From the NCBI GenBank assembly GCA_028715785.1, contig JAQURC010000001.1, forward strand, positions 204,766-268,765: DNA of 64,000 nt, written 5' to 3'. This document shows, piece after piece, positions 5,689-62,885 of the stretch (positions within the stretch are counted from its first letter, which is position 1; every line of letters begins with the position of its first letter). Source of the stretch: Candidatus Omnitrophota bacterium (GTDB lineage: Bacteria > Omnitrophota > Gorgyraeia > Gygaellales > Profunditerraquicolaceae). The position numbers were made by a program, and so were the translations under genes. The notes beneath the pieces were generated by a model. That model saw only the letters and a list, made by a program, of their open reading frames with translations, was not told the origin of the DNA and did not search any database.

Positions 5689-5764
5689 TCCCCCTTAGCT
5701 CAGTTGGTAGAGCGAGAGACTGTTAATCTCCAGGTCCTAGGTTCGAGTCCTAGAGGGGGAGCCA
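5689..5764 (+). tRNA. tRNA-Asn (anticodon GTT)
   Basis: Cloverleaf with acceptor TCCCCCT/AGGGGGA, anticodon loop CUGUUAA, T-loop GTTCGAGTC and an encoded CCA. Confidence 0.9.
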
Positions 5765-6145
5765 TCTTTACGATTCCGCAAACCTTGAAGGTTAGCGGTT
5801 AACGCCTTACTCTTCGGAGTGAGGCGTTTTTGTTAGCGGAGATCACTCGGTAAAATTTGCTGCAGGGATGGTATATATAAGTCCAAGGCTATGTGGTTGA
5901 TTAATGCGGGGAGGGATTCTAGGGTATTGCCAGTCCTTGGAGTGGTGTCACTTTGCGCCACAGAAGCCTTACCGGGGATCAAGCATATTGTTCCAGACGT
6001 CTGTAATAATCCGGTTGGGAATTATCGGTATCCTAATTTAAGATTACGCTGGCATAGTATGCATTATTTTAAAATTAATTGCCACTAAGAAGAAAAGATG
6101 TATAATAAACAAATAAAGGGGCTACAAAATAAGCAAGGAGAAGAA

Positions 6146-7111
6146 ATGGCGACGTCAGAACAGATTAAGGCTTTGATCCGTTCCCACTACGACGATAATT
6201 CAGAGCAATTCTTTTCGACTGTATTACAGATTGCGGCCCATGAAGCACGCCAGGGGCATGGAGAGTTGGCCCATGAGATTCGCGATCTTGTTGATAAAAC
6301 TAGGAAAGAAAAATCTGAGAAGAATGTTCTGGTTTTCCCTCAGGAACTTAACGGTCTTATTTTTTCTGAAAAACCAGATGTTCCGTTATCAACCCTTGTT
6401 GTTAGTGATCAACTAAAGGTTAGGATTGAAAGAATCATAACTGAATTTCGCCAGCAAAATAAACTTAAAAACCATGGTTTGATTCATCGTAGAAAAATAC
6501 TTTTAGCCGGTGCGCCAGGAACAGGTAAGACTATGACGGCTAAAGTTCTGGCATCAGAATTAAAGCAATTATTACATATTATTCAGATGGACCGTCTTGT
6601 TACAAAATTTATGGGTGAGACTAGCGCAAAACTTAGGCAGATTTTTGATAAAATGTTGGTAATGCCGGGAGTTTATTTATTTGATGAGTTTGATGCTATC
6701 GGTAGCGAAAGAAACTTAGAGAATGATGTTGGTGAAATGCGCAGAGTGTTGAATTCTTTTCTACAGTTTATTGAAAAGGATACGTCAAATAATTTAATTA
6801 TCGCAGCTACAAATAACTTACGTTTACTTGATCGTGCATTGTTTCGAAGATTTGATGATGTTCTTCATTATGGTCTCCCGGAACAAACCTCCCGCTCTAG
6901 ATTAATCATGAATGTTCTAAGTACCTTTCGCGATAAGGATTTTTCTTTAGAAAGAGCTGCTAGGATTGCCGACGGACTTAGTCAAGCCGAAATTGATCAT
7001 GTCTGTAGAGATGCAATAAAGTTAACAATTTTAGACAATAAAGATTTCGTTGCCTCTAATTTATTTGAGAGTCTGTTAAAAGAACGCCGCTCAGCCTGTC
7101 AGAAAAAGTAA
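6146..7111 (+). CDS. AAA+ ATPase (classic AAA clade), ietA-like
   Basis: Walker A GAPGTGKT, Walker B LFDEFD and second region of homology ATNNLRLLDRALFRRFD. A strong RBS AGGAGA precedes the ATG at 6146, and the ORF is also open from 6098. Confidence 0.7.
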   Translation: MATSEQIKALIRSHYDDNSEQFFSTVLQIAAHEARQGHGELAHEIRDLVDKTRKEKSEKNVLVFPQELNGLIFSEKPDVPLSTLVVSDQLKVRIERIITEFRQQNKLKNHGLIHRRKILLAGAPGTGKTMTAKVLASELKQLLHIIQMDRLVTKFMGETSAKLRQIFDKMLVMPGVYLFDEFDAIGSERNLENDVGEMRRVLNSFLQFIEKDTSNNLIIAATNNLRLLDRALFRRFDDVLHYGLPEQTSRSRLIMNVLSTFRDKDFSLERAARIADGLSQAEIDHVCRDAIKLTILDNKDFVASNLFESLLKERRSACQKK

Positions 7112-7123
7112 CAATCATTAGTT

Positions 7124-9601
7124 ATGCCCAATAAAAGATTTCAGCATCTTTTTATTAAAGAAGCTCATACCGCAAAAAATTTTACAAGCACTTCATCCGG
7201 TGGCACTAAGCCACGCATTCCCGTTCGAGAAATAGAAGCCCACAGCCGTTTCCTCCAGGAAAAATTTAACGCCGCATGGACTCAAGCCCAAAATAAGCAG
7301 GCCGTAATACATGCTGCTAGGGAGGGGGTGTATATTGAATTTAAAGGTGATCCCGGGTATGAGTTAGTTACTAAAAGCTTGGAAGATATGCGTTCAAAGA
7401 GGATTCGATTATTAAATGTTCGAACTGAAAAAGAAGGTGAATTGCCAGTTATTTATGCCACTGTATATGTCCCCAATGATAAGAAAAATCATTTTCTAAA
7501 AAAAATTCAAGAGTATGCAGCAGAAAAATTAGAAACAGACCCGCCTAAAAATGCTTCATTGATTAATAGTATAGCAGATATCAGGGAAGCCATTATGGTT
7601 GAGTCATTTTGGCAAGATAAAAAAGAATTAATCCCTTCTACAGATGGCGCCTGGTGTGAGGTCTGGCTGAGTAGCGATAAAGAAGCAGTGCTGCAAAGAT
7701 TTAATGATCTGCTTGTTCGTGAAGAGATTAGGGCAGCCGATGGTTTAATAAAGTTTCCGGAGAGGATGGTGAAATTAATCTTTGTCAATAAAAGACAGCT
7801 AGAACGCCTAACGACATTATCTGATGATATTGCAGAATATCGTTTAGCAAAAGAAACAGCTGCTTTATTGCTAGAAATGGAAAACAAAGATCAAATGGAA
7901 TGGGTTAAAGATTTATTGTCGCGATGCCAAGTTAATCCTAACCCTAATGTTTCTGTTTGTATACTGGATTCTGGTGTAAATAACGGCCACCCGCTGCTTT
8001 CGTTAGTATTAAATAATGATGATTGTCAGGCTGTTGATAATAGTTGGGGGGTAGATGATCATGATGGGCATGGTACCCTTATGGCCGGGTTGTCTGCTTA
8101 TGGCGACTTACTGGCCTGTTTATTTAATAATCAAGCTGTTCGTCTGTACCACTGTCTCGAGTCTGTAAAAATGCTTCCCCCTCCGCCACAGAAAAATGAA
8201 GTAAAGCTCTGGGGGTATATTACCGATCAGGCAGTTAGCAAGGCTGAAATTAAGGCTCCTGAAAGAAAACGCATCGTATGCATGGCCATAACTTCAACTG
8301 ATACTCGAGATCAAGGTCGTCCTAGTTCTTGGTCGGGTCGTATAGATCAGCTCGCAATCGGAGAGGATAACGGAAACAAGAGGCTTTTTATTATATCCGC
8401 GGGGAATATGGATATTGATAGTATATTAAATTATCCTGATGCGCAAGAGATAGAATCTGTTCATGATCCGGCTCAATCATGGAATGCGCTTGTTGTTGGG
8501 GCGTATACCAAATTTGATCAAATAACAGACCGGACTTTTGCAGGTTTTATCCCAGTCGCCAAAGCCGGGGGACTGTCTCCTTTTAGCACAACATCTCAAA
8601 CATGGGAAGGTAAGTGGCCAGTCAAGCCTGATATTGTTATGGAGGGCGGGAACGTAATTCATGACGGCAAGGGATTCTGGGACCATCCAGGGGAAGTTTC
8701 TCTTTTGTCTACTTATCGTGATACGACAAAAAGTCATTTTCGTTTATTTAATATGACAAGCGCTGCAACCGCACAAGCTGCTTGGTTTGCTGCCCAAATT
8801 CAAAATATTTATCCCGATATTTGGCCAGAAACTATTCGAGCTCTTATGGTGCATTCATCGGAGTGGACTGATACTTTAAAAGCTCAATTCTTACCGGCAC
8901 AACCCACAAAAACAGATTATTCTAGGCTTCTGCGTATTTGTGGTTACGGAGTGCCCAATTTAACAAGAGCACTTTACAGCGCAGCAAATAATTTAACACT
9001 TATTGCTCAGTCTGAGCTACAGCCTTATGACAGAGAAGAAGGTGCAAGTAATTACAAAACAAAGGAAATGCATCTTTATGATCTGCCTTGGCCGAAGGAA
9101 GTCCTGCAAGAATTACCGCCAGATATTAAGGTTCAAATGCGTATTACCCTTTCTTACTTTGTAGAACCTGGACCAGGAGAAATTGGATGGAGGGATCGTT
9201 ATCGCTATGCTTCTCATGCGTTACGGTTTGATATAAAGTCTCCCAGCGAAACAAAAGAGCTTTTTCAAAAAAGAATAAATTTGGCAGCCAGAGAAGAGAA
9301 AGAAGGTCATCCTGGCACTCAAGGCGCATCAGATCACTGGACAATCGGGTCTAATGGTAGAGACAAGGGTTCGATACATTCTGATATTTGGGATGGTAAT
9401 GCTGCAGATCTGGCTGAATCGGGCGTAATTGCTGTTTATCCTGTAATCGGTTGGTGGCGCGAAAGAGCTTATCTTGGGAGATGGAACCAGAAATGTAGGT
9501 ATTCAATTATCGTTTCAATAATGACCCCTGAAGAAAAGATAGACATTTACACTCCTGTTGCGCATAAAATTGGTATTGCCGTACCCATTCCTATCAGCTA
9601 A
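7124..9601 (+). CDS. S8 family subtilisin-like serine peptidase (825 aa), ietS-like
   Basis: Catalytic triad motifs in order: ILDSGV (Asp), DGHGTLMAG (His) and MTSAATAQAA (Ser, GTSMA-like). Lies 12 nt after the AAA ATPase gene. Confidence 0.75.
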   Translation: MPNKRFQHLFIKEAHTAKNFTSTSSGGTKPRIPVREIEAHSRFLQEKFNAAWTQAQNKQAVIHAAREGVYIEFKGDPGYELVTKSLEDMRSKRIRLLNVRTEKEGELPVIYATVYVPNDKKNHFLKKIQEYAAEKLETDPPKNASLINSIADIREAIMVESFWQDKKELIPSTDGAWCEVWLSSDKEAVLQRFNDLLVREEIRAADGLIKFPERMVKLIFVNKRQLERLTTLSDDIAEYRLAKETAALLLEMENKDQMEWVKDLLSRCQVNPNPNVSVCILDSGVNNGHPLLSLVLNNDDCQAVDNSWGVDDHDGHGTLMAGLSAYGDLLACLFNNQAVRLYHCLESVKMLPPPPQKNEVKLWGYITDQAVSKAEIKAPERKRIVCMAITSTDTRDQGRPSSWSGRIDQLAIGEDNGNKRLFIISAGNMDIDSILNYPDAQEIESVHDPAQSWNALVVGAYTKFDQITDRTFAGFIPVAKAGGLSPFSTTSQTWEGKWPVKPDIVMEGGNVIHDGKGFWDHPGEVSLLSTYRDTTKSHFRLFNMTSAATAQAAWFAAQIQNIYPDIWPETIRALMVHSSEWTDTLKAQFLPAQPTKTDYSRLLRICGYGVPNLTRALYSAANNLTLIAQSELQPYDREEGASNYKTKEMHLYDLPWPKEVLQELPPDIKVQMRITLSYFVEPGPGEIGWRDRYRYASHALRFDIKSPSETKELFQKRINLAAREEKEGHPGTQGASDHWTIGSNGRDKGSIHSDIWDGNAADLAESGVIAVYPVIGWWRERAYLGRWNQKCRYSIIVSIMTPEEKIDIYTPVAHKIGIAVPIPIS

Positions 9602-9868
9602 TATTTTTTGTATAACATATTGCCAAAGTTATAATTTTGAGGAAGAGGGTGGTACTTTGGGAACGTCCCCGAACCAACTTTAACGGCTAAAGAAAGGATC
9701 GTTATTCGACCAGGCCATTCCTAAGCTTTTGGATGCTATAGGGGGTCAAAACAACCCCCGGGGTGGGTATGGTTTTTTGTTAAGAGTTAAGCAAAAGACC
9801 GTATTGCTTATCGTAGAAAATATCTCTGCAGATTTTGTCGGTTGCGAATGTGTGATACAGGCAGCCTT

Positions 9869-9896
9869 AGCCCTAGTGAAATCTAGGGCTTTTTTC
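9869..9896 (+). terminator. candidate rho-independent terminator inside the island spacer
   Basis: Stem AGCCCTAG/CTAGGGCT with a 6-nt loop, followed by TTTTTT. Confidence 0.4.
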
Positions 9897-10085
9897 TTGT
9901 ACGGACCAGGCAGCATCTTAAGGGAACATTTGAAGCCGGCGAGGGTTTCCGTTGGGGATATGAAATACCTTGATAATTCAAATGGTCAGGTTTAAGATAC
10001 CTTAGATGGAGATTTCAAAAGCTACTGTTAGGGTTATTATTAAAATACAAACTGTCAGGATTATGCTTTTTAAGCTATTGTAGAA

Positions 10086-11423
10086 ATGAAAAAAGACAAA
10101 AAAATAATATTATTAGGACTATCCGCAAAGCGCTTTTTTAGAAAAGTAAGAAGTAGATTAATCAGAAGGATTTATGATGGAGGTAGGGTATCTAAACAAA
10201 AAAGACATAAATATCATATTTCTTCAAGAAAACATTATGCAGAAATAAAAGCTTCAAAACATGGAGGATTAGAATCTATTACAATCAAAATTCCAAAGAA
10301 ATTTTGTTTTATTAAGGATCCCGTTGGTACAAGTAGATTTTTCGAGAGATTAAGAAAAAAATTTCATAAAGGTTTACCTCGCGATATTTTTATAGATCAT
10401 AAATCCACTGAAGAAATTGGCTTAGCTGCCTCTTTTTTATTCGATCAAATCATGAAAGAAGAAGCAAGGTTTTGGGCAGGGAGTAGAATCAAAATAAGGT
10501 TATCCGGAGTGATATCTGACTTTAAGCAAGTCAATAATTTCTTATTATCATTTGGAATTTTGAATGAGTTAGGTATTTCGCATAGGAATTTTGGTAACGA
10601 AAAAGTCGACGTTGACTATGCTGAGAAATATTATACTTTTAAAATGAGCGGTTCGAAAGCGAAACCTCAATTGGCAAGCTTTGCAAGTGTTGGCGTAGTA
10701 GAATATTTTAATACTTGTCTTGAATATAATGGATTCAAAATAGCGGATCCGGCAAGAATTTCACTTGTTGATAGAATGGGAGAGATTATTTGTAACGCAG
10801 AAGAGCACTGTGGGAATGAAAAAGGGGAATGGTTTGCTTTGGGGTGCTACAATAAAGAAACTCATAATTGTAGCTTTGCAATAATTAATTATGGAAAGAC
10901 AATTTATGAGACCTTATCTGATAAAGATTCCACTGCTTCTGATGTAATAGAGAATGTGCAAAAGATTATAGATAGCCATAGACCCTTTTGGCAGAAGATT
11001 TACGGTTTGATGTTTAAGAAAGAGCATGAAGAGCCTACTTGGAGTATTATGGCTCTACAGGATGGCATTAGTTCAAAAAGAACAAATACAGGAAGAGGAC
11101 GAACTAGAGGCCAAGGGATCATGGATGTTTTGAGTTTTATAGAATTGATTAAAGCCGGAAGCAATGGGGCTGAAATTTGCTTGCTATCCGGGCATTCGGC
11201 TGTTAAGATAGATTACAGTTATCCAATAATCGCTAAAGAGGTAGGGTCAGCAAAAGAAAAACGAAGGTTTATTACATTCAATAAGGAAAATGATTTAAAG
11301 ATTCCTCCTGACGGAGATAAGGTATTATTTTTTGACGATAAATTTCAAGGAACAATCTTTACTGGAAGTTTTAAGCTGGACAAAAAATATTTGGAAGAAA
11401 GGTTAAAGCAGGAAAATGGATAA
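10086..11423 (+). CDS. GHKL/histidine-kinase-like ATPase family protein (445 aa); RsbW-like N-box, no histidine kinase dimerisation/H-box seen
   Basis: N-box E-x3-N-A-x2-H in EIICNAEEHCG. Glycine-rich G-box-like segments QDGIS and GRGRTRGQGI. Basic N-terminus. Confidence 0.5.
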   Translation: MKKDKKIILLGLSAKRFFRKVRSRLIRRIYDGGRVSKQKRHKYHISSRKHYAEIKASKHGGLESITIKIPKKFCFIKDPVGTSRFFERLRKKFHKGLPRDIFIDHKSTEEIGLAASFLFDQIMKEEARFWAGSRIKIRLSGVISDFKQVNNFLLSFGILNELGISHRNFGNEKVDVDYAEKYYTFKMSGSKAKPQLASFASVGVVEYFNTCLEYNGFKIADPARISLVDRMGEIICNAEEHCGNEKGEWFALGCYNKETHNCSFAIINYGKTIYETLSDKDSTASDVIENVQKIIDSHRPFWQKIYGLMFKKEHEEPTWSIMALQDGISSKRTNTGRGRTRGQGIMDVLSFIELIKAGSNGAEICLLSGHSAVKIDYSYPIIAKEVGSAKEKRRFITFNKENDLKIPPDGDKVLFFDDKFQGTIFTGSFKLDKKYLEERLKQENG

Positions 11424-11763
11424 GTTAATTAATTTAGCTGATTTTCTCATAGGCAATGAAACTACTTTAGTTGGAAGGGATAATGGGGAAAATGTCTTTG
11501 ATAAGCTTGTTAAGGCAGGCTTAAGTTTCGTTGATCTTGAAAGTAAATTTGATAAAATAATCATTGGTATACCTGATAGAGTAGTCAGCATCAATAAATC
11601 TTTTTTTCTAGGTTTGTTTGAAACCGTCATTGAAAGATTAAAAAAGGGCGGTTTTTATGCAAAATATGATTTTGAAACAAGCGAGCATATTAAAAATAAA
11701 ATTGAAAGTCATGTAGATGCGGCCCTATTAAATGCAAGTCAAAAGGATATCTTAAATGCCTGA
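11416..11763 (+). CDS. small STAS-like protein resembling DUF4325 (115 aa)
   Basis: Pattern L-x-G-R-x-x-G…II-I-G-I-P-D-R-V-V-S-I-N-K-S-F-F-L-G-L-F matches the DUF4325 STAS-like consensus as I recall it. The start overlaps the GHKL gene by 8 nt. Confidence 0.45.
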   Translation: MDKLINLADFLIGNETTLVGRDNGENVFDKLVKAGLSFVDLESKFDKIIIGIPDRVVSINKSFFLGLFETVIERLKKGGFYAKYDFETSEHIKNKIESHVDAALLNASQKDILNA

Positions 11764-12346
11764 TCCTATTGTTAATTCTACAATAGCGCAAAATGCTGTT
11801 GCTGTTTCGGCTGCTGCTTTCAACCCTTCAGCTTTTTGGTCCATGTTGACTCTGGTATTCAACATAGTTCTTAGCATGTTTAATATTCTCTGGTTTCATA
11901 TTAAGCGATCAAACAAAAGAAAATATGAGCTGGAGTTTACATTTTATGAACTTTTAGTAATTAACTCTTCCAAAGATCTGATTGGGTTGTTATCAAAAAT
12001 GAAGAAAGAGTTAAACTCTTTAGCTCTTAAAGCCCGGGGCGGAATTAAAGCCGGATTTTCTAGGAAAGATGTAGAAGAACATATTGAGCACTTAGATCAA
12101 TTTATATTCGAATTACAGGTAAATACTATTCCACTGATTAAAGGATATTCAATGGATCTGGGAAGTAAAATTGATAAGTTAGTCGAAGATTGTCACGATC
12201 AAACGACAGATCTATTTAGCAAATTTGATCGTCAAACTATCCCCGTTGATTTAGAGAATAGGCTATATGGTAGCTTTTCAGTTCTGGAAACTCAATATCT
12301 TGAGCGTATATTTAAAAATATAAAAGAGTATTGTCCCCACTGTTAG
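11756..12346 (+). CDS. single-pass membrane protein with coiled C-terminal domain ending in CPHC (196 aa)
   Basis: Hydrophobic segment FWSMLTLVFNIVLSMFNILWF. Translationally coupled to the upstream gene by an ATGCCTGA overlap. Confidence 0.5.
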   Translation: MPDPIVNSTIAQNAVAVSAAAFNPSAFWSMLTLVFNIVLSMFNILWFHIKRSNKRKYELEFTFYELLVINSSKDLIGLLSKMKKELNSLALKARGGIKAGFSRKDVEEHIEHLDQFIFELQVNTIPLIKGYSMDLGSKIDKLVEDCHDQTTDLFSKFDRQTIPVDLENRLYGSFSVLETQYLERIFKNIKEYCPHC

Positions 12347-12520
12347 AAAATTACTTTGTATCCCAAGCTTGTATTCTAAATATGTTTTTTAAAGTTTCTT
12401 TTTGTCAAAGGCACTAATTGTACAAGTTATGCAAGCACTAAGTTAGCTTCTTCAAATAGTACTTTAATAATACTAAGTTCGGTTTCAAGCTCAATATCCC
12501 TGTTGCGAAATGCGTCATAT

Positions 12521-12536
12521 AGGGGGAGCCAATCTT
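12521..12536 (+). repeat. attR-like direct repeat of the tRNA-Asn 3' end
   Basis: AGGGGGAGCCA(A)TCTT is identical or near-identical to 5754-5769. Confidence 0.5.
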
Positions 12537-12573
12537 CAGAGGGGTTTATTTTTTTTAAGGTATAATTTAATCA

Positions 12574-13149
12574 ATGAAAACCAAGAACGTTTATATTATT
12601 GCCGGCCCAAATGGTTCCGGTAAAACCACGTTCGCAAATGAATTCTTGCCGGAATACGCAAAATGCCAGAATTTTGTCAATGCCGACCTTATTGCACAAG
12701 GCTTATCGCCTTTTTCTCCCCGGGCAGCAGCAATAAAAGCCGGTAGGCTCGTATTAGAGCAGATCCGTAGTTTGGCAGAAAAGAATGTTGATTTTGCATT
12801 CGAGACAACCTTATCTGGTAAATCTTACGTGCGATTGCTAACAAGCTTAAAAAATAAAGGCTACACAATAAATCTTTTCTTTCTTTGGATTCCCAACGCC
12901 GAGTTTGCTTTGGGTCGTATAAAAGACAGGGTAGCCAGTGGCGGACATGATGTACTCGCAGCAGACGTAAAACGAAGATTTAATAGAGGGATATATAATT
13001 TCTTCAAATATTATAAGCCTTTATCCGATACTTGGTTATTATTCAATAACGCAGACGCTATACCTCGCCTAATTGCCAGAGAGAAAGACGGGAAAACGGA
13101 TATTATTGATAAAGAAATGTATGAGAAAATAATAAAATTCACGAGGTGA
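12574..13149 (+). CDS. zeta-toxin-like / AAA_33 P-loop kinase family protein
   Basis: N-terminal P-loop YIIAGPNGSGKTT. Size and motif spacing fit the zeta toxin family. Confidence 0.6.
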   Translation: MKTKNVYIIAGPNGSGKTTFANEFLPEYAKCQNFVNADLIAQGLSPFSPRAAAIKAGRLVLEQIRSLAEKNVDFAFETTLSGKSYVRLLTSLKNKGYTINLFFLWIPNAEFALGRIKDRVASGGHDVLAADVKRRFNRGIYNFFKYYKPLSDTWLLFNNADAIPRLIAREKDGKTDIIDKEMYEKIIKFTR

Positions 13150-13154
13150 ATCTA

Positions 13155-13316
13155 ATGACAAAAAAGACATTACAGTTAAAAGCCATAAAAGCGCTCAAAG
13201 AAGCCGTGCGTAAAGTAGTAGAGGAGCATAAGCACAGCGGTCGGCGTCTTGTTGTGTGGCGTAATGGTAAATTAATGCGGATACCCGCTTCTCAAGTGTT
13301 GCGAAAAGCCAATTAA
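13155..13316 (+). CDS. unannotated 53-aa ORF directly downstream of the kinase (possible antitoxin/partner)
   Basis: ATG lies 6 nt after the kinase stop. Translation is MTKKTLQLKAIKALKEAVRKVVEEHKHSGRRLVVWRNGKLMRIPASQVLRKAN. Below the 60-aa cutoff of the ORF track. Confidence 0.35.
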   Translation: MTKKTLQLKAIKALKEAVRKVVEEHKHSGRRLVVWRNGKLMRIPASQVLRKAN

Positions 13317-13428
13317 ATTAATAAACGATTCGCCATCGCTGGCCGTTTTTTGAATTATTTAAGCCAGCTATAAGCTCTACAGAAAAGTTCGGTAATTTAC
13401 CCCTATCGGGGAGTTTGCTTCGGGAAAG

Positions 13429-13455
13429 CCGAGTATTTTTATACTCGGTTTTTTT
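13429..13455 (+). terminator. rho-independent terminator
   Basis: CCGAGTAT-TTTT-ATACTCGG followed by TTTTTTT. Confidence 0.6.
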
Positions 13456-13571
13456 ATTGCTAAACTCATCTTCTCCAAATATTTGTTGTATAACCTTTTG
13501 CTGGAGTTATAATTATATAAAATGTAGCGCTCTAAAAAACTGTGATGAGATAAACCAAAAACAAGAGAAAC

Positions 13572-13997
13572 ATGGCTTTTAAAGAGAAATTACAAACGGG
13601 GAAATTGGCTGCGGTTTTATCTATATTCCTTATCTTATTTGTTATAGCTTGGCCGCTTTTACATGGCGCCTCGGACGGGAAATTATACCAGTTTCTTGCT
13701 TACGTCATTGATAAGTCGCCTGAGTGCGCGTCTTGTCCGCCGCAGAACGTTTCAGTTTCTAACATAATGAATGCACGGAAAGAAGACCCCTCGGTATTGA
13801 CAATCACAGTGGGCTCTAGCCCGCATATCGGTAAGTTAGTCATAGGGGCGCAATACCGTTTTTATATTAAAATTTATCAAGCATCAAATTCCCTGGAACT
13901 TATTTATTATGAGGAAGCCAACAACCAGCAGCCTATGAATGATTATGCAGCCCAGAGAATCAGCTTTCCAGAGTTTCTCCGAAAATTAGGGAAATAG
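13572..13997 (+). CDS. hypothetical membrane-anchored/secreted protein
   Basis: N-terminal hydrophobic helix, no known motif. Confidence 0.4.
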   Translation: MAFKEKLQTGKLAAVLSIFLILFVIAWPLLHGASDGKLYQFLAYVIDKSPECASCPPQNVSVSNIMNARKEDPSVLTITVGSSPHIGKLVIGAQYRFYIKIYQASNSLELIYYEEANNQQPMNDYAAQRISFPEFLRKLGK

Positions 13998-14082
13998 GGA
14001 GCGGCCCTAGAATATATTACTTGTAATTCCGGGATTTGTGCTAAAATATAGCAAAGAAAAGCTGAATTACAAAGGAGGGAAT

Positions 14083-14421
14083 ATGGAAAAGCTTGCGGTA
14101 TTAATGGCGGTAATATGCCTGATTTTCAGTATCGGCGTATTAGGCTGTGGGCAGCAAAAAGCTTCTTCAGTCAGCGAAGTAATCAAGACGGCAGAAACAA
14201 TGCCGACAGTGAAAGCAAAAGTAGATTATCTTATTGGCCAGGCAAATGCTTTTTATAACTCCAAAGAATATCAGCAGGTAGTGGATATAGCTAATTACAT
14301 CTTATCTAAAGTAGATCGAAACTCCCAGGATGCCAGGAGCCTGTTAGAGAAAGCCAAAACTGCATTAAGCGCTGCCGCAAAGAATGCCGCCTCCGATGTT
14401 ACCAAAGGCCTGGGGTTTTAA
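14083..14421 (+). CDS. small lipoprotein
   Basis: RBS AAAGGAGGGA precedes the ATG. Signal peptide with lipobox LGC. Confidence 0.5.
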   Translation: MEKLAVLMAVICLIFSIGVLGCGQQKASSVSEVIKTAETMPTVKAKVDYLIGQANAFYNSKEYQQVVDIANYILSKVDRNSQDARSLLEKAKTALSAAAKNAASDVTKGLGF

Positions 14422-14574
14422 AGCATGGCCTACCTAAAACTTCAAGAGCAGTTTCAGAAGATTCCCGTTAACTTCTTAAGAATTCATGCGGTTATCCAAA
14501 TTATCATCGGAGTATCGATGGTTGTTTTAAAACGGCGGATATTATAAACCAGTAGTTGAACAAAAGGAGGAGAT

Positions 14575-14742
14575 ATGAAAATAGTAAAAATCATCTTGGC
14601 TATTTTGCTTCCCCCCGTGGCCGCGTTTATACAGGTAGGCCTGACGACTCACTTCTGGGTCAATGTAATACTTTGCCTTTTGTTCTATATTCCGGGGATA
14701 TTGCATGCCTTGTGGCTGGTTTTAACTGATAAGAAGAGTTAA
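14575..14742 (+). CDS. YqaE/Pmp3 family small membrane protein (55 aa)
   Basis: MKIVKIILAILLPPVAAF…YIPGILHALWLV matches the UPF0057 pattern. RBS AAGGAGGAG. Missed by the ORF track because it is under 60 aa. Confidence 0.7.
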   Translation: MKIVKIILAILLPPVAAFIQVGLTTHFWVNVILCLLFYIPGILHALWLVLTDKKS

Positions 14743-14779
14743 GCGCAGTTTATTATTATAAAAGTCAAAAGGAGGCAAG

Positions 14780-15406
14780 ATGAAGAATTATTTAGTTGAG
14801 TTTATCGGTACTTTTTTATTTCTTCTTGTTATCGGACTTTGTGTTATTGAACCGGGGAGTGCCGGAGCAATGGCGCCTTTAGCAATAGGCGCGATATTAA
14901 TGGTAATGGTCTATGCGGGCGGGCACATATCCGGGGGGCATTATAATCCCGCAGTTACCCTTGGCGTTTGGATGCGCGGTAAATGCAAGGCAAAGGACGT
15001 TCCTCTTTATATGCTCGCCCAAGTTTTAGGCGCATCTTTTGCTTCCTTGCTGGCCGTAAAAATAAAAGGCGACAGCTTAATCGTTGCGGCAGCACCTGAT
15101 ACCATTAATGCCTTGTTAGCAGAGTTCATTTTTACTTTTGCGCTGGTTTATGTCGTATTGAATACGGCAACTTCTAAGAAGACAGCGGGCAATTCATATT
15201 ACGGATTAGCGATAGGTTTTACTCTAATGACAGCCGCTTACGCGATAGGCAATATCTCCGGGTGCGCTATTAATCCGGCAGTGGCTATCGGGCTGACCGT
15301 GATGGGATTAAGCAGTTTAAGCAACCTCTGGATTTTTCTTGTGGCTAATTTTGCGGGTGGGGCCTTAGCCGCCGTTATTTTTAAGATTACAGAAGCGCAA
15401 GAATAA
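14780..15406 (+). CDS. MIP family channel (aquaporin)
   Basis: Two NPA motifs (HYNPAVT, INPAVA) and six-TM hydropathy. Confidence 0.85.
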   Translation: MKNYLVEFIGTFLFLLVIGLCVIEPGSAGAMAPLAIGAILMVMVYAGGHISGGHYNPAVTLGVWMRGKCKAKDVPLYMLAQVLGASFASLLAVKIKGDSLIVAAAPDTINALLAEFIFTFALVYVVLNTATSKKTAGNSYYGLAIGFTLMTAAYAIGNISGCAINPAVAIGLTVMGLSSLSNLWIFLVANFAGGALAAVIFKITEAQE

Positions 15407-15438
15407 CTGTGAAATTCGTTCATCAGGGAGGGGTTGAA

Positions 15439-15468
15439 ACGCCGGGTATTTTTTGCCCGGCGTTTTTG
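15439..15468 (+). terminator. rho-independent terminator after the aquaporin gene
   Basis: ACGCCGGG / CCCGGCGT stem followed by TTTTT. Confidence 0.6.
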
Positions 15469-15555
15469 TTTAAAATTCTCCATTAATCAGCAGTATGAGA
15501 AAAACAGTTGCTTTCTGCTTATCTTATGTTATAAAATGAAAAGAAAGGAGTTTAT

Positions 15556-16170
15556 ATGTGCCCCAAGATCAGAATATCGGTTCTGTCTCTATTGATTGTA
15601 GTTACAGCCTTGTCGCTGACAGGTTGTTGCGGGGTTTTCTCCTCGATGCCCTGGTGTCCGGATGTGCCGGAACCCACTGATGCAGAAATTGCGGCCAGGA
15701 TAGAAATTAAAAAGAACCGGGAGCTGGCAGAAGCGGCAGTTTCGGAAATTAAGGAAAAGTTTAAAGGGAAAGAAACAAAAACATCCTACGTTACTGCCAA
15801 GGACCTGTATATTAAAGCTATGAGCGAGAATAATGCCTGGCTGTCGGTACTTGCATCGAGCATAGAGAACAATGAGAATTTGGAAAAAGCGGATTCTTTT
15901 AAAAAACAGTCAAAGATAGCCGCTGATACTGCGGGATCCTTCCTGGCGTATGGAAGAGAGTTATTAATTAGCAAGCCCGGCGCGGAAAAAGCTGTTTTTG
16001 CAACAAAGAGCTTGGCGCTGGCGCCTATCGCTGACTTGATAACAGCGCTTGTGGCCAATGGGATAACTATTTGGAAAGCGAATATGGCTCAGAGAGCCCA
16101 GGCAAGAAGAGACCGGGCAGATAATATCAGGAAAGATTTAAGCTGGAAAACATGGAAACAGATCGAATAG
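15556..16170 (+). CDS. lipoprotein, function unknown
   Basis: Signal peptide with lipobox LTGC. Confidence 0.45.
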   Translation: MCPKIRISVLSLLIVVTALSLTGCCGVFSSMPWCPDVPEPTDAEIAARIEIKKNRELAEAAVSEIKEKFKGKETKTSYVTAKDLYIKAMSENNAWLSVLASSIENNENLEKADSFKKQSKIAADTAGSFLAYGRELLISKPGAEKAVFATKSLALAPIADLITALVANGITIWKANMAQRAQARRDRADNIRKDLSWKTWKQIE

Positions 16171-16234
16171 CGCCTGAAGTTTTCTGCTTTTGACGATATT
16201 GAAGAAGCCAAGGATTGGTTGGTAAAAATATAAT

Positions 16235-16729
16235 ATGCCAGATCCCCAGCGGTTTAAAAAAGCAGGCGGTTATCCGGTTATTTTCTGGTCAGTTTATAAG
16301 AAAAAACCCAAAATACTGTGCATTGTTTTATCTAAAAATTCTAAATCATTTCCAGGTTCCGCCGCTTCTTCCTGCCCGGAAATTAATGTTATTGGCGATC
16401 GGATTGAAAAATTTTTAAACGGAGAGGATGTCCATTTTCCTTTAAACATGCTGCGTCTTGACCTTTGTCCGGTTTTTCAGCGAAGGGTCCTTACCGCCGC
16501 ATATGATATTGCCCGCGGCAGAACCAGCACTTATCAACTTATTGCAAAGCAGCTGGGAAAACCTAATGCCGCCAGGGCCGTTGGGACGGCTTTAGCCGCT
16601 AATCCTTTTCCGTTATTTATCCCCTGTCATCGCGTTATCCGTTCCGACGGCTCACCGGGCGGTTATCTGGGCGGGCCGAAGATGAAACGAGTTTTATTAC
16701 GTAAGGAGGGTAGCTATGAAAAAAATTAG
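16235..16729 (+). CDS. ogt: methylated-DNA-protein-cysteine methyltransferase
   Basis: Active-site PCHRV motif and the C-terminal DNA-binding domain pattern. The true start may be internal. Confidence 0.75.
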   Translation: MPDPQRFKKAGGYPVIFWSVYKKKPKILCIVLSKNSKSFPGSAASSCPEINVIGDRIEKFLNGEDVHFPLNMLRLDLCPVFQRRVLTAAYDIARGRTSTYQLIAKQLGKPNAARAVGTALAANPFPLFIPCHRVIRSDGSPGGYLGGPKMKRVLLRKEGSYEKN

Positions 16730-17663
16730 GAACATATTGATTGTGGCTGTTATCTCCGTTTTTGCCATTGTCATCATTAGGGACCAGGTGATCAAGTCTG
16801 TAATAACGGTTACAGCCACGCAGGTTGTCGGGGCGCCGATCCATATAGACGGATTTTCTCTGGGGATTTTTAAGCAGTCGGTGAGAATATCCGGATTTAA
16901 AATATATAATCCTAAAGGATTTTCCAAGGGCATCCTTGTGGATTTGCCGAAGATCAATGTCCGTTGTGATTTAGGTTCTTTATTTAAGAATAAGCTGCAT
17001 TTGGTAAACGTCGAGGTTGAATTAAAAGAGATAGGCCTTGAGAAAAATAGCGAAGGGAGGTTAAATGTCGACGCCTTGAAAGTGGCAAAACAAGAGCGGG
17101 GCAAGGAGGATAAATCGTCCAAACAGATGCCGATGCGGCTGGATACGGTCAAGCTTGGGATCGGAAGGATTGTTTTAAAAGATTACAGCGCGCAAAAAGA
17201 CCCGGCCGTTAAAGTATACGATATAAATATAAATAAAACTTATAAAAATATTACCAGCGCCCAGCAGTTGGCCGCCCTGATACTGTCTGAGCCGATGAAA
17301 TCAGCCGGAATAGAGGGGGCTAAAATTTACGGAGCCGCGATGTTGGCCGGGGTGGCGGTTTTACCGGTAGCGGTGGCGGCAACCTTTATCGGACGAGACA
17401 GCGTCCAGCATGAATTTATTGCCGGTTTTGATAATGTGTTTGAAACAAGCTCGGTTGTTTTGAAAAAAATGGGCAGGCTTACTAAAGAAGATAAGCCAAA
17501 CGGTATCCTGGGGGCCGAAATTGACTCCGCCCAGGTAGCTTTAAAGATCAGGAAAAAACCCAATAATAAAACCGAAGTGGTAATCTCGGCGAGAAAATAT
17601 CTTCTGCCCAAACCGGAAATAGCAGGCGGGGTTCTTTATAAAATTTCCGAAAAAATAAAATAA
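16716..17663 (+). CDS. hypothetical N-terminally anchored protein
   Basis: N-terminal transmembrane helix. No motif recognised. Confidence 0.4.
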   Translation: MKKIRNILIVAVISVFAIVIIRDQVIKSVITVTATQVVGAPIHIDGFSLGIFKQSVRISGFKIYNPKGFSKGILVDLPKINVRCDLGSLFKNKLHLVNVEVELKEIGLEKNSEGRLNVDALKVAKQERGKEDKSSKQMPMRLDTVKLGIGRIVLKDYSAQKDPAVKVYDININKTYKNITSAQQLAALILSEPMKSAGIEGAKIYGAAMLAGVAVLPVAVAATFIGRDSVQHEFIAGFDNVFETSSVVLKKMGRLTKEDKPNGILGAEIDSAQVALKIRKKPNNKTEVVISARKYLLPKPEIAGGVLYKISEKIK

Positions 17664-62474: not shown

Positions 62475-62885
62475 GGGGGTGAAAGGGTTCGACTTAAGAT
62501 ATGTCGGATAAAAGCAGCATGCCGCGGACGCATGGTTAGCCGCGTTAATAACCCGTGCACAATATAAACGCAAACACAAACACGCAAGTGTTCAATCGCT
62601 TAGCGCCAAAAACAGCAATGTTTTTAGCGCCTGTAGCGGGCGTACCAGCCTTCGGACTTCATTAAGTCCGAAGCCTCTAACCGTCTACGCCTACGGGACG
62701 GATTAGGGCCTTAGTAGGATAGCTCCGGTGGTTGCCTTTGAAGCCGGAGCGAAATTTAAAAGGCTGCTCCTTGCAAATCCTGCCATGTAGAAGTTGCAAG
62801 GTTAAGATAAATTACAAGGCTAAGCATGTAGCGGCTTTTATTTGATTACTTAAGGACGGCGGTCCGATTCCGCCCACCTCCACCA
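62475..62885 (+). ncRNA. ssrA: transfer-messenger RNA (tmRNA)
   Basis: 5' GGGGGTGAAAGGGTTCGAC pairs with the 3' CACCTCC-A-CCA end, including a G3:U wobble. T-arm GGCGGTCCGATTCCGCC. Lies directly after smpB. Confidence 0.85.

Follow-up and report, generated by a model that had tools for sequence, protein, structure and literature searches.

Directly downstream of the tRNA-Asn(GTT) gene of a Candidatus Omnitrophota bacterium lies a compositionally foreign interval, positions 5765–12531 of the 64,000-nt stretch of DNA analyzed here (the window), which carries five genes: a pair related to ietA and ietS, encoding an AAA+ ATPase and an S8 protease, and a three-gene cassette encoding a STAS-GHKL kinase (gene A), a small STAS-fold protein (gene B) and a single-pass membrane protein (gene C). 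The interval is probably the decayed remnant of an integrative element that was inserted at the 3′ end of the tRNA gene by a large serine recombinase (LSR) and that carries IetAS together with a module resembling VapKSC. Its features are listed below in window coordinates, with the attachment (att) site parts named after the reconstruction given further on; two contigs recur as comparisons, namely L110 (Ga0265297_10011288) and L174, a contig of another Omnitrophota metagenome-assembled genome (MAG), STB_82.

5689–5764 (+): tRNA-Asn(GTT), the putative integration target (ARAGORN and Rfam)
5754–5764 (+): core copy 1, AGGGGGAGCCA, the putative attL core, originally 16 nt with one A lost in the window
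5755–5871 (−): LSR 3′-end remnant, the last ~40 codons, broken by a stop codon in frame and by a 1-nt deletion, the remainder of the gene being deleted (tblastn against L110)
5765–5800 (+): left arm of the element (P′), with ACGATTCCGCAA, putative dyad partner of the right arm
5801–5828 (+): G+C-rich hairpin and T run, a terminator for the tRNA, within the LSR remnant
6079–6106 (+): promoter-like site, 11 of 12 consensus positions, overlapping the ietA start codon at 6098
6098–7111 (+): ietA, AAA+ ATPase whose Walker A motif, GAPGTGKT, is at residue 138 (PADLOC IetA 3e-68, full length)
7124–9601 (+): ietS, S8 subtilase-type protease (PADLOC IetS 4e-30; Pfam Peptidase_S8 7e-64)
9608–9635 (+): lineage-consensus promoter, TTGTATAAC-N11-GTTATAAT
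9688–9769 (+): leader segment conserved in L174, whose start it matches at 76% identity, no Rfam family
9869–9890 (+): terminator-like hairpin in the leader
10086–11423 (+): gene A, 445 aa, with N-terminal helices, a STAS domain and a SpoIIAB/RsbW-type GHKL serine kinase
11416–11763 (+): gene B, 115 aa, small STAS-fold protein
11756–12346 (+): gene C, 196 aa, with one transmembrane segment (~residues 26–49) and a helical domain
12438–12531 (+): conserved right end, 83% identical to L174, with P arm GTTGCGAAATGCGTCATAT (12502–12520) and core copy 2 (12521–12531)
12532–12553 (+): B′ arm, ATCTTCAGAGGGGTTTATTTTT, like the native trailer after the intact tRNA-Asn of L113

The window lies on a 303-kb contig of the source MAG (NCBI locus tags PHP73_01175 to PHP73_01185), and exact look-ups found neither its ABC-F protein nor its zeta-like protein on record. 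Relatives of the locus were fetched by means of the window's ABC-F protein, yielding 160 loci from genomes and metagenomes (~156 distinct, nearly all Candidatus Omnitrophota), across which the order dnaX-recR-abcF-tRNA-Asn is kept. None of the window genes between 6098 and 16170 was found 3′ of tRNA-Asn in any of these ~156 loci. The composition of the interval is equally distinctive, as windowed GC falls to 0.32–0.38 compared to ~0.45 in the flanks, and the G+C content at third codon positions (GC3) is 0.31 for ietA, 0.32 for ietS and 0.27, 0.23 and 0.29 for genes A, B and C, respectively, against a background of 0.506±0.059 over 50 genes (z −3.2 to −4.7 for the five). Beyond the interval, a zeta-toxin-like gene has an intermediate GC3 of 0.38 and subsequent genes come close to native values, which places the second copy of the repeat described below on a compositional boundary. 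An initial annotation had described an AT-rich accessory island with an AAA ATPase, an S8 protease, a GHKL protein, a STAS-like protein and a membrane protein; all five labels proved right (the GHKL protein being a STAS+GHKL fusion and the membrane protein having one transmembrane segment), and both the strongly different GC and GC3 and the absence of these genes from the same place in the relatives agree with an island.

The repeat that bounds the interval is the last 11 nt of tRNA-Asn, of which the window holds exactly two copies, at 5754–5764 and 12521–12531 on the same strand. When extended, the copies read GTCCTAGAGGGGGAGCCA and GTCATATAGGGGGAGCCA (16 of 18 positions identical), and an 18-mer with ≤3 mismatches was duplicated in none of 100 shuffles. 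Both copies had been reported to be followed by TCTT, and the 11-nt repeat is indeed exact and TCTT does come after each, but in the second copy an extra A intervenes at 12532. The left junction of L110 reads GGGGGAGCCAATCTTTACG, which indicates that the ancestral block of identity comprised 16 nt, AGGGGGAGCCAATCTT, and that the left copy in the window has since lost one A. In the relatives, fragments of the tRNA 3′ end were found nine times in 321 kb downstream of the gene on the same strand, compared to four times in 609 kb upstream and twice on the opposite strand.

The 3′ ends of tRNA genes are habitually targeted by tyrosine rather than serine integrases. A profile built from five tyrosine integrases returned none in the window and a single one in the ~156 related loci, a 189-aa open reading frame (ORF) with a Phage_integrase domain ~4 kb after tRNA-Asn in L042. 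This profile being near-empty, it was a Pfam census of the relatives' ORFs that revealed serine recombinases, and iterated searches with the LSRs found in that census showed that, in at least 25 relatives, tRNA-Asn is directly adjoined by an LSR gene lying on the minus strand. The enzymes of L012, L002 and L056 have Resolvase and Recombinase domains according to Pfam, two of the three having Zn_ribbon_recom as well. LSR reading frames run into the complement of tRNA-Asn in at least three registers, terminating in WLPL, WLPLEDSNLGPGG or MAPPLGLEPRTWRLTVSRSTN before the stop codon, such that the C-terminus of the enzyme is encoded by the opposite strand of the tRNA gene. LSR genes crossing the element boundary were noted in L110 (9506–10969, −), L106 (12012–13694, −), L131, L034, L042, L137, L003, L130, L117 and others.

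In the window, the first 81 nt 3′ of tRNA-Asn (about 5765–5844) are 95% identical to L110, in which the stretch matching the window from 5765 onward encodes the C-terminus of the LSR; the abcF proteins of the two loci are 84% identical, and 95% over these 81 nt is far above expectation for noncoding DNA. Furthermore, residues 448–487 of the L110 LSR match window positions 5871–5755 by tblastn (67.5% identity, E 7e-10), across one stop and a 1-nt deletion. Together, these two matches indicate that a serine recombinase gene was deleted here except for its last ~40 codons, which lie in the leader. A complete enzyme with Resolvase, Recombinase and zinc-ribbon domains is not in the window, where the C-terminal tail alone is present; no recombinase was found elsewhere in the interval, and local profiles identified no integrase or LSR in the rest of the window. 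Thus, the 333-nt leader is not noncoding as first annotated, and the accompanying statement that the interval lacks a recombinase holds for an intact gene but overlooks the remnant at 5755–5871. Small leader ORFs at 5891–6088 had no family match, and the leader and spacers gave no Rfam match at gathering or permissive thresholds. Taken as sequence evidence, these data support a large serine recombinase rather than a tyrosine integrase as the likely enzyme, and we infer that the island lost its LSR and is now immobile on its own.

At the opposite end, the second repeat copy lies within a 30-nt motif, (ACC)RGTTGCGAAATGCGTCATATAGGGGGAG (12502–12531), which among all fetched loci occurs only 3′ of tRNA-Asn and on the same strand, at five independent loci (the window, L002/L092, L007, L015 and L174). 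The right end of L174 is similar to window positions 12438–12532 over 95 nt (83%), the similarity stopping exactly after ...GAGCCA, and beyond the core L174 continues with another hairpin trailer and then mscL. In the window the 22 nt that follow the core match the native tRNA-Asn trailer of L113, ATCTTCAGAAGGGCTTATTTTT, at 20 positions. An element arm, a core and a host trailer in succession are expected of an attR, and 12502–12553 is read as such. At the left end, tRNA-Asn is intact to 5764 and foreign sequence starts at 5765. When attP is rebuilt by joining the right and left arms, TTGCGAAATGCGT and ACGATTCCGCAA form an imperfect dyad, 5–6 nt either side of the core. Neither att arm motif was found in IMG/VR, and attR was not located within 10 kb in the other LSR-bearing relatives. 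The initial view that insertion at a tRNA 3′ end next to a direct repeat marks an integrated element is upheld, though with a serine-type rather than a tyrosine-type recombinase, and of its two options for the missing enzyme, decay is the one favored by the ~40-codon remnant at the tRNA, the intact gene there in relatives, and the conserved distal end with its native trailer.

In the scenario that we propose, an LSR would have inserted the element within the 16-nt core at the tRNA-Asn 3′ end, creating an attL made of the tRNA and the P′ arm and an attR in which the P arm and the core are followed by the native trailer that the insertion separated from its tRNA. The reconstructed attP would be 12495–12531 joined to 5765–5800, and attB the tRNA-Asn 3′ end followed by ATCTTCAGAGGGG; the predicted empty site thereby reads ...GAGTCCTAGAGGGGGAGCCAATCTTCAGAGGGGTTTATT, with the tRNA joined to ATCTTCAGAGGGG, and the predicted excised circle ...GCGTCATATAGGGGGAGCCA(A)TCTTTACGATTCC. 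Judging from the relatives, an intact element would have its LSR at the tRNA-proximal end, reading toward the tRNA with its last codons in the tRNA complement, and is predicted to have the P arm GTTGCGAAATGCGTCATA and the core at its far end. All but the last ~40 LSR codons would have been deleted later, leaving the element at the tRNA-proximal edge of what appears to be a hypervariable hotspot that extends to ~16.2 kb and in which relatives carry other defence or toxin-antitoxin genes.

With regard to cargo, IetAS was reported as an anti-phage system by Gao and colleagues in 2020 and is named 'IteA/IteS' in NCBIfam. In ietS, D282, H316 and S546 are present, as is a SAGN oxyanion motif at 425. 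The pair appears to be a distant IetAS from an uncultured phylum, for which we infer anti-phage activity.

The 484-nt spacer that separates ietS from gene A (9602–10085) had been annotated as noncoding but is not featureless, as it contains a promoter, a conserved stretch of ~80 nt and a terminator-like hairpin. The kinase operon is probably transcribed from the promoter at 9608–9635, with a leader of ~450 nt, and the hairpin at 9869–9890 is a possible attenuator or small RNA end; the leader segment 9640–9897 has a fold z-score of −2.9. Small ORFs in the spacer (9729–9995) had no family match. Separately, the motif AAATATTT-TTGTATAAC-N11-GTTATAAT recurs at 9600–9636 and 13478–13514 of the window and in relatives (L002 at 11631, L055 at 12171, L107 at 15961, L062 and others); with a TTGTAT resembling a −35 box, a perfect TATAAT, an internal dyad and A/T-rich sequence in its upstream part, it stands before many unrelated genes and looks like a strong consensus promoter of these Omnitrophota. 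The 37-nt repeat that it creates at 9600 and 13478 was considered as a cassette junction or att site and rejected, being this lineage consensus promoter and present in many unrelated places.

Genes A, B and C overlap end to start. In gene A, the N box (E233..N237..H241) and the G box (G342xG344) are invariant, and gene B has an invariant serine, S62, at the N-terminus of helix 61–83, followed by a C-terminal helix (90–114). None of the three genes had a match in Pfam, PADLOC, NCBIfam or PDB sequence searches. The folds of the kinase and the STAS protein are predicted with high confidence, the closest solved folds being the anti-sigma kinases SpoIIAB/RsbW and their STAS antagonists. In 5.8 billion clusters, gene A has ~60 close relatives, which belong to scattered phyla, and its profile recruits 1,166 representatives at 50% clustering (E ≤ 1e-3), most of them ~440 aa; ~120 relatives were found for gene B. 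The search with gene C yielded three proteins in total, one of identical sequence and, from Omnitrophota, two close relatives, indicating that this gene evolves fast; one transmembrane segment and a helical domain are present in its distant plasmid versions as well. The A-B-C order and the gene sizes are kept in all 16 distinct contexts examined, which include plasmids as well as a provirus and a prophage. In none of the 16 cassettes or their immediate surroundings was a sigma factor seen, and no immune operon follows the window cassette, gene C being succeeded by attR. The contexts in which the cassette was found are as follows.

L081, L082: Treponema-like contigs
L083, L084: metagenome contig, beside housekeeping genes
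L085, L086: Omnitrophota MAG, with an adjacent XerC-like integrase
L087: island with an MmeI-type restriction-modification system and an integrase
L088: adjoining an AAA_13 ATPase
L089: integrative element
L090: prophage end, beside the prophage's own integrase
L171: IMG/VR provirus
L172, L173: Pantoea and Spirosoma plasmids, that of Pantoea being pAR8b_C
L174–L179: further MAG or read assemblies, one beside a SacI-like endonuclease and Vsr

The nearest described counterpart is VapKSC, a three-gene anti-phage system that consists of the STAS-GHKL kinase VapK, the STAS protein VapS and the PIN toxin VapC (PMC13373217; Chambers et al., EMBO J 2026). According to the same work, VapS has 116 aa and is phosphorylated on S48, its C-terminal helix inhibits the toxin, and the related HTH-STAS-GHKL protein CapK acts with CapS, both being transcriptional regulators and CapS repressing an adjacent immune operon; in the model, the kinase is switched on by single-stranded DNA (ssDNA), as shown directly for CapK and by inference for VapK. 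By analogy, an infection or damage signal would switch on kinase A, which would phosphorylate S62 of the gene B protein, the presumed substrate and antitoxin. Phosphorylation of B would release the membrane protein C, the presumed effector, and the freed protein would damage the membrane and kill or arrest the cell, aborting infection. For comparison we used the VapK, VapS and CapK sequences from the supplementary files of PMC13373217. A hidden Markov model (HMM) of the wider kinase family matched residues 127–274 of CapK with 18 bits (E 1e-7) and VapK with 10 bits in two collinear segments (E 2.5e-5), in each case in a two-sequence target set; for scale, BLASTP of CapK against VapK gives an E-value of 0.005. 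Gene B had no sequence-level match to VapS, and the version with a transmembrane effector is unmentioned in PMC13373217 and was not found in a literature search.

Several observations weigh against this overall interpretation. The comparison is cross-species: the closest abcF relatives have 91% protein identity, no same-species genome with an empty site was found, a metagenome search for abcF relatives found no same-species contig, an exact metagenome search with the junction sequence gave no match, and precise insertion is thus deduced from comparison between species. The match between the dyad arms alone has p ~0.025, a modest value to which the symmetric placement adds. No contig in the set has the intact element, with an L110-type LSR and the P-arm end together, and the P-arm motif is also found in L002, L007 and L015 behind other types of tRNA-proximal sequence, where arms may have been exchanged or insertions nested. 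L174 shares the window from 9688 onward only, so that IetAS and the kinase cassette could be separate arrivals. As to the cargo, both members of the first pair miss the NCBIfam equivalog cut-offs (196 vs 510 bits for IetA and 52 vs 900 bits for IetS), which is the reason for calling it a distant IetAS member. When profiles of A and B were aligned by hhalign with the single VapK and VapS sequences, the matches were not significant (E 0.078 for A vs VapK), and gene A has no obvious counterpart of the ssDNA-contacting aromatic residue (F54) of CapK/VapK. Finally, the activity, signal and toxicity ascribed to the cassette are all drawn from analogy.

The element does not account for all of the variation at this locus. 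In the empty-site relatives L095 and L105, mgmt starts 8–13 nt after tRNA-Asn (with asmA next in L095), and compared to these two relatives all of 5765–16234 is extra, the interval being its tRNA-proximal, compositionally foreign part. The original bounds of the island, set by the repeat, agree with the element at 5765–12531, but the variable region runs on to ~16234 and includes the following features.

12574–13316 (+): zeta-toxin-like P-loop kinase (191 aa) and overlapping 56-aa partner, outside the element and inside the variable region
13572–16170 (+): rest of the variable region, with 141-aa and 127-aa unknowns, an MIP channel and a 204-aa protein, of near-native composition and missing from the empty-site relatives
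16235–17663 (+): mgmt and an asmA-like gene, the first conserved genes of the right flank

The 56-aa partner has a GTG start that overlaps the stop of the zeta-like kinase gene. At ~60% identity, the zeta-like pair is found elsewhere in relatives, either 5′ of dnaX (L003, L057 and L140) or in inverted orientation behind abcF (L063), and on this distribution it behaves as a mobile two-gene cassette of toxin-antitoxin-like type. The window mgmt gene (16235–16729) encodes a protein of 164 aa, compared to ~100 aa in L095/L105, whose conserved domain spans residues 81–159 in the window, and its N-terminal extension may have been acquired with the upstream insertions. A PADLOC census of 146 ORFs 3′ of tRNA-Asn in 27 relatives identified a CBASS cyclase and phospholipase, type II restriction-modification, AbiEii, a DRT reverse transcriptase, GajB, SduA and MADS components; HEPN-MNT pairs are further cargo of the slot, which is a defence-island hotspot. 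In L015, a 3.7-kb island (12041–15754) follows tRNA-Asn with a perfect 26-nt direct repeat, CGAGTCCTAGAGGGGGAGTTTTAAAC, at both ends; it encodes a nucleotidyltransferase-HEPN (HEPN-MNT) pair and a GIY-YIG/RAMA protein, has no recombinase, and contains the P-arm motif internally at 14910.

Other observations concern the tRNA gene and the sampling of the locus. The contigs of many MAGs (L001, L006, L009, L017, L021, L032, L043 and others) stop at most a few hundred bases past abcF/tRNA-Asn, which suggests assembly breaks at a strain-variable hotspot. In L008 (12097–12172, −), L062, L074, L107 (14607–14682, −) and L016 (5865–5878, −), tRNA-Asn or a fragment of it is inverted relative to abcF, which suggests recombinase-mediated inversions at the site. 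The window tRNA-Asn is uninterrupted. In distant Omnitrophota, tRNA-Asn(GTT) is split by a 200–290-nt insertion in the anticodon region, causing ARAGORN to miss the gene, and the insertion is a group I intron (RF00028, 61–75 bits by Rfam in all six loci tested), as listed below. Far from the interval, the tag peptide predicted for a tmRNA at window 62475–62885, ANTNTQVFNRLAPKTAMFLAPVAGVPAFGLH, is unusually long.

L039: split tRNA-Asn, 12068–12373
L049: split tRNA-Asn, 7825–8127
L050: split tRNA-Asn, 11985–12277
L052: split tRNA-Asn, 7534–7854
L057: split tRNA-Asn, 11975–12277
L079: split tRNA-Asn, 11988–12348

We next weighed four other explanations against these data. The one that survives best, although on balance we think it rather unlikely, is that two modules were acquired independently in tandem, an older LSR element that left the left end and perhaps IetAS, and a unit from ~9.6 kb to 12531 with the kinase cassette and the P-arm end. 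This would fit the observations that L174, whose contig begins at that very point, shares only 9688–9769 and 10071–12532 (with 76% nucleotide identity over the 2.3 kb from 10071 to 12348), that the cassette has its own consensus promoter and occurs without IetAS in other contexts, and that GC3 differs slightly between IetAS (0.31–0.32) and the cassette (0.23–0.29). However, no tRNA-like or arm-like scar was found in 9602–10085, and the left P′ and right P arms appear to be dyad partners, as predicted for a single attP; moreover, two arrivals would be compatible with an LSR-inserted element and would alter its history only.

A second alternative concerns function: genes A–C could serve signaling instead of defence, as a partner-switching module of the RsbW/RsbV or CapK/CapS kind with control over gene expression or a membrane process. 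The nearest solved folds, SpoIIAB and RsbW with their STAS antagonists, and the regulatory role of CapK and CapS in transcription (PMC13373217) speak for such a module. Yet the cassette has no sigma factor or DNA-binding domain, B having 115 aa and no winged helix-turn-helix (wHTH), it invariably forms a trio complete in itself, located on mobile DNA and beside restriction-modification genes or integrases, its family is patchy across phyla, and gene C evolves very fast, as is typical of conflict systems; we consider a purely regulatory role unlikely.

It is more improbable still that no site-specific element was involved, the slot between tRNA-Asn and mgmt having been swapped by homologous recombination between conserved flanks and the repeat being incidental. 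Such swapping would account for a variable region that passes the repeat and reaches ~16.2 kb relative to L095/L105, for unrelated slot cargo in the relatives (CBASS, restriction-modification, AbiE, DRT, Gabija, Shedu and HEPN-MNT) and for the many MAG contigs that end just after abcF and the tRNA, and flank-mediated exchange may well add to the turnover of the whole slot. It leaves unexplained, however, a recombinase remnant positioned exactly at the tRNA where at least 25 relatives have intact LSRs, a right repeat within a 30-nt motif that across species lies only 3′ of tRNA-Asn, and the coincidence at the right end of the halt of L174 homology at the core, the adjacent native trailer and the change in composition at the repeat. 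An island of the tyrosine-integrase type, or an integrase-less one, that is still mobilized in trans by an integrase encoded elsewhere is highly improbable, since, despite the tRNA 3′ end with a direct repeat being the classic tyrosine-integrase signature, the Phage_integrase ORF of L042 and the integrase-less island with a perfect repeat in L015, the leftover recombinase sequence in the window is serine-type, tyrosine integrases occur in one of ~156 related loci compared to LSRs in at least 25, the core copies have diverged (2 of 18 positions are mismatched, and the left copy has lost 1 nt), which points to decay rather than current mobility, and the rest of the window, the part of the 303-kb contig that the search covered, yielded neither an integrase nor an LSR to local profiles.

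As a decayed defence island at a tRNA gene, the probable remnant of an LSR-inserted element described here is itself ordinary, and the use of a tRNA target by a serine recombinase is unusual. We think it quite possible, if short of probable, that the cassette founds a widespread, as yet undescribed family of abortive-infection or toxin-antitoxin systems gated by phosphorylation, with members from Omnitrophota to Enterobacterales carried by plasmids, prophages and islands, in which a CapK/VapK-type kinase senses infection or DNA damage and phosphorylates a STAS antitoxin, and a single-pass membrane toxin replaces the PIN nuclease; and, separately, that there is an LSR lineage which targets a tRNA 3′ end with reading frames ending in the tRNA complement. 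Should the kinase-STAS switch be a portable trigger for different toxins, this would extend the principle of the phosphorylation-gated antitoxin in bacterial immunity, and constructs for testing the cassette are at hand in the Pantoea and Spirosoma plasmids and the window MAG. The tRNA-Asn hotspot of Omnitrophota, for its part, is served mainly by LSRs encoded by genes that extend into the tRNA on its other strand, giving a view of the workings of mobile elements in a phylum without cultured genetics. Given that LSRs with defined, short and conserved attB sites are sought-after tools for genome engineering, a tRNA-targeting clade with reconstructable att arms could be a useful addition.

Compared with known systems, the first gene pair follows IetAS in having an AAA+ ATPase followed by a large S8 protease, with the Walker A motif and the Asp-His-Ser triad intact, and departs from typical members in that both proteins score far under the NCBIfam equivalog cut-offs. 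The island as a whole resembles the tRNA islands of tyrosine integrases (P4-like elements, pathogenicity islands and SSV-type elements) in its tRNA 3′ end, direct repeat, foreign composition and accessory or defence cargo, whereas its recombinase belongs to another family, none is intact, and it sits in a longer hotspot of multiple modules. It shares with LSR elements of the phiC31, Bxb1 and SCCmec Ccr type an enzyme of Resolvase, Recombinase and zinc-ribbon domains at the element edge (in the relatives), the short att identity and the putative imperfect dyad arms around the core of the reconstructed attP, and unlike the usual LSR elements it has a tRNA 3′ end as target, an LSR frame that crosses attL into the tRNA complement and, in the window, an enzyme gene that is nearly all deleted.

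Among kinase systems, the cassette recalls CapK-CapS in that its kinase has STAS and GHKL domains together with an N-terminal extension and is paired with a STAS protein bearing a conserved serine; unlike CapS, gene B has 115 aa and comprises the STAS fold and one helix without a wHTH, and the pair is not upstream of a CBASS, Bub or Thoeris operon. The likeness to VapKSC goes further, extending to the gene order (a STAS-GHKL kinase, a STAS protein of ~115 aa and an effector), the invariant serine at the start of helix 2 (S48 in VapS, S62 in gene B) in a similar context (MFAS48PFFNY and SINKS62FFLG), the C-terminal helix (94–116 in VapS, 90–114 in gene B), the N box EIxxNxxEHS and C-terminal F-x-G-T-I...D-x-K-Y motif that VapK and kinase A have in common, and a location near other defence genes and on mobile DNA. 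On the other hand, the third gene encodes a single-pass membrane protein with a helical domain in place of a VapC PIN nuclease, and kinase A, with 445 aa compared to 302 aa in VapK, has an extra N-terminal helical region. Failing on the PIN domain and not being a sequence-level member, the cassette is VapKSC-like in the architecture of its first two components.

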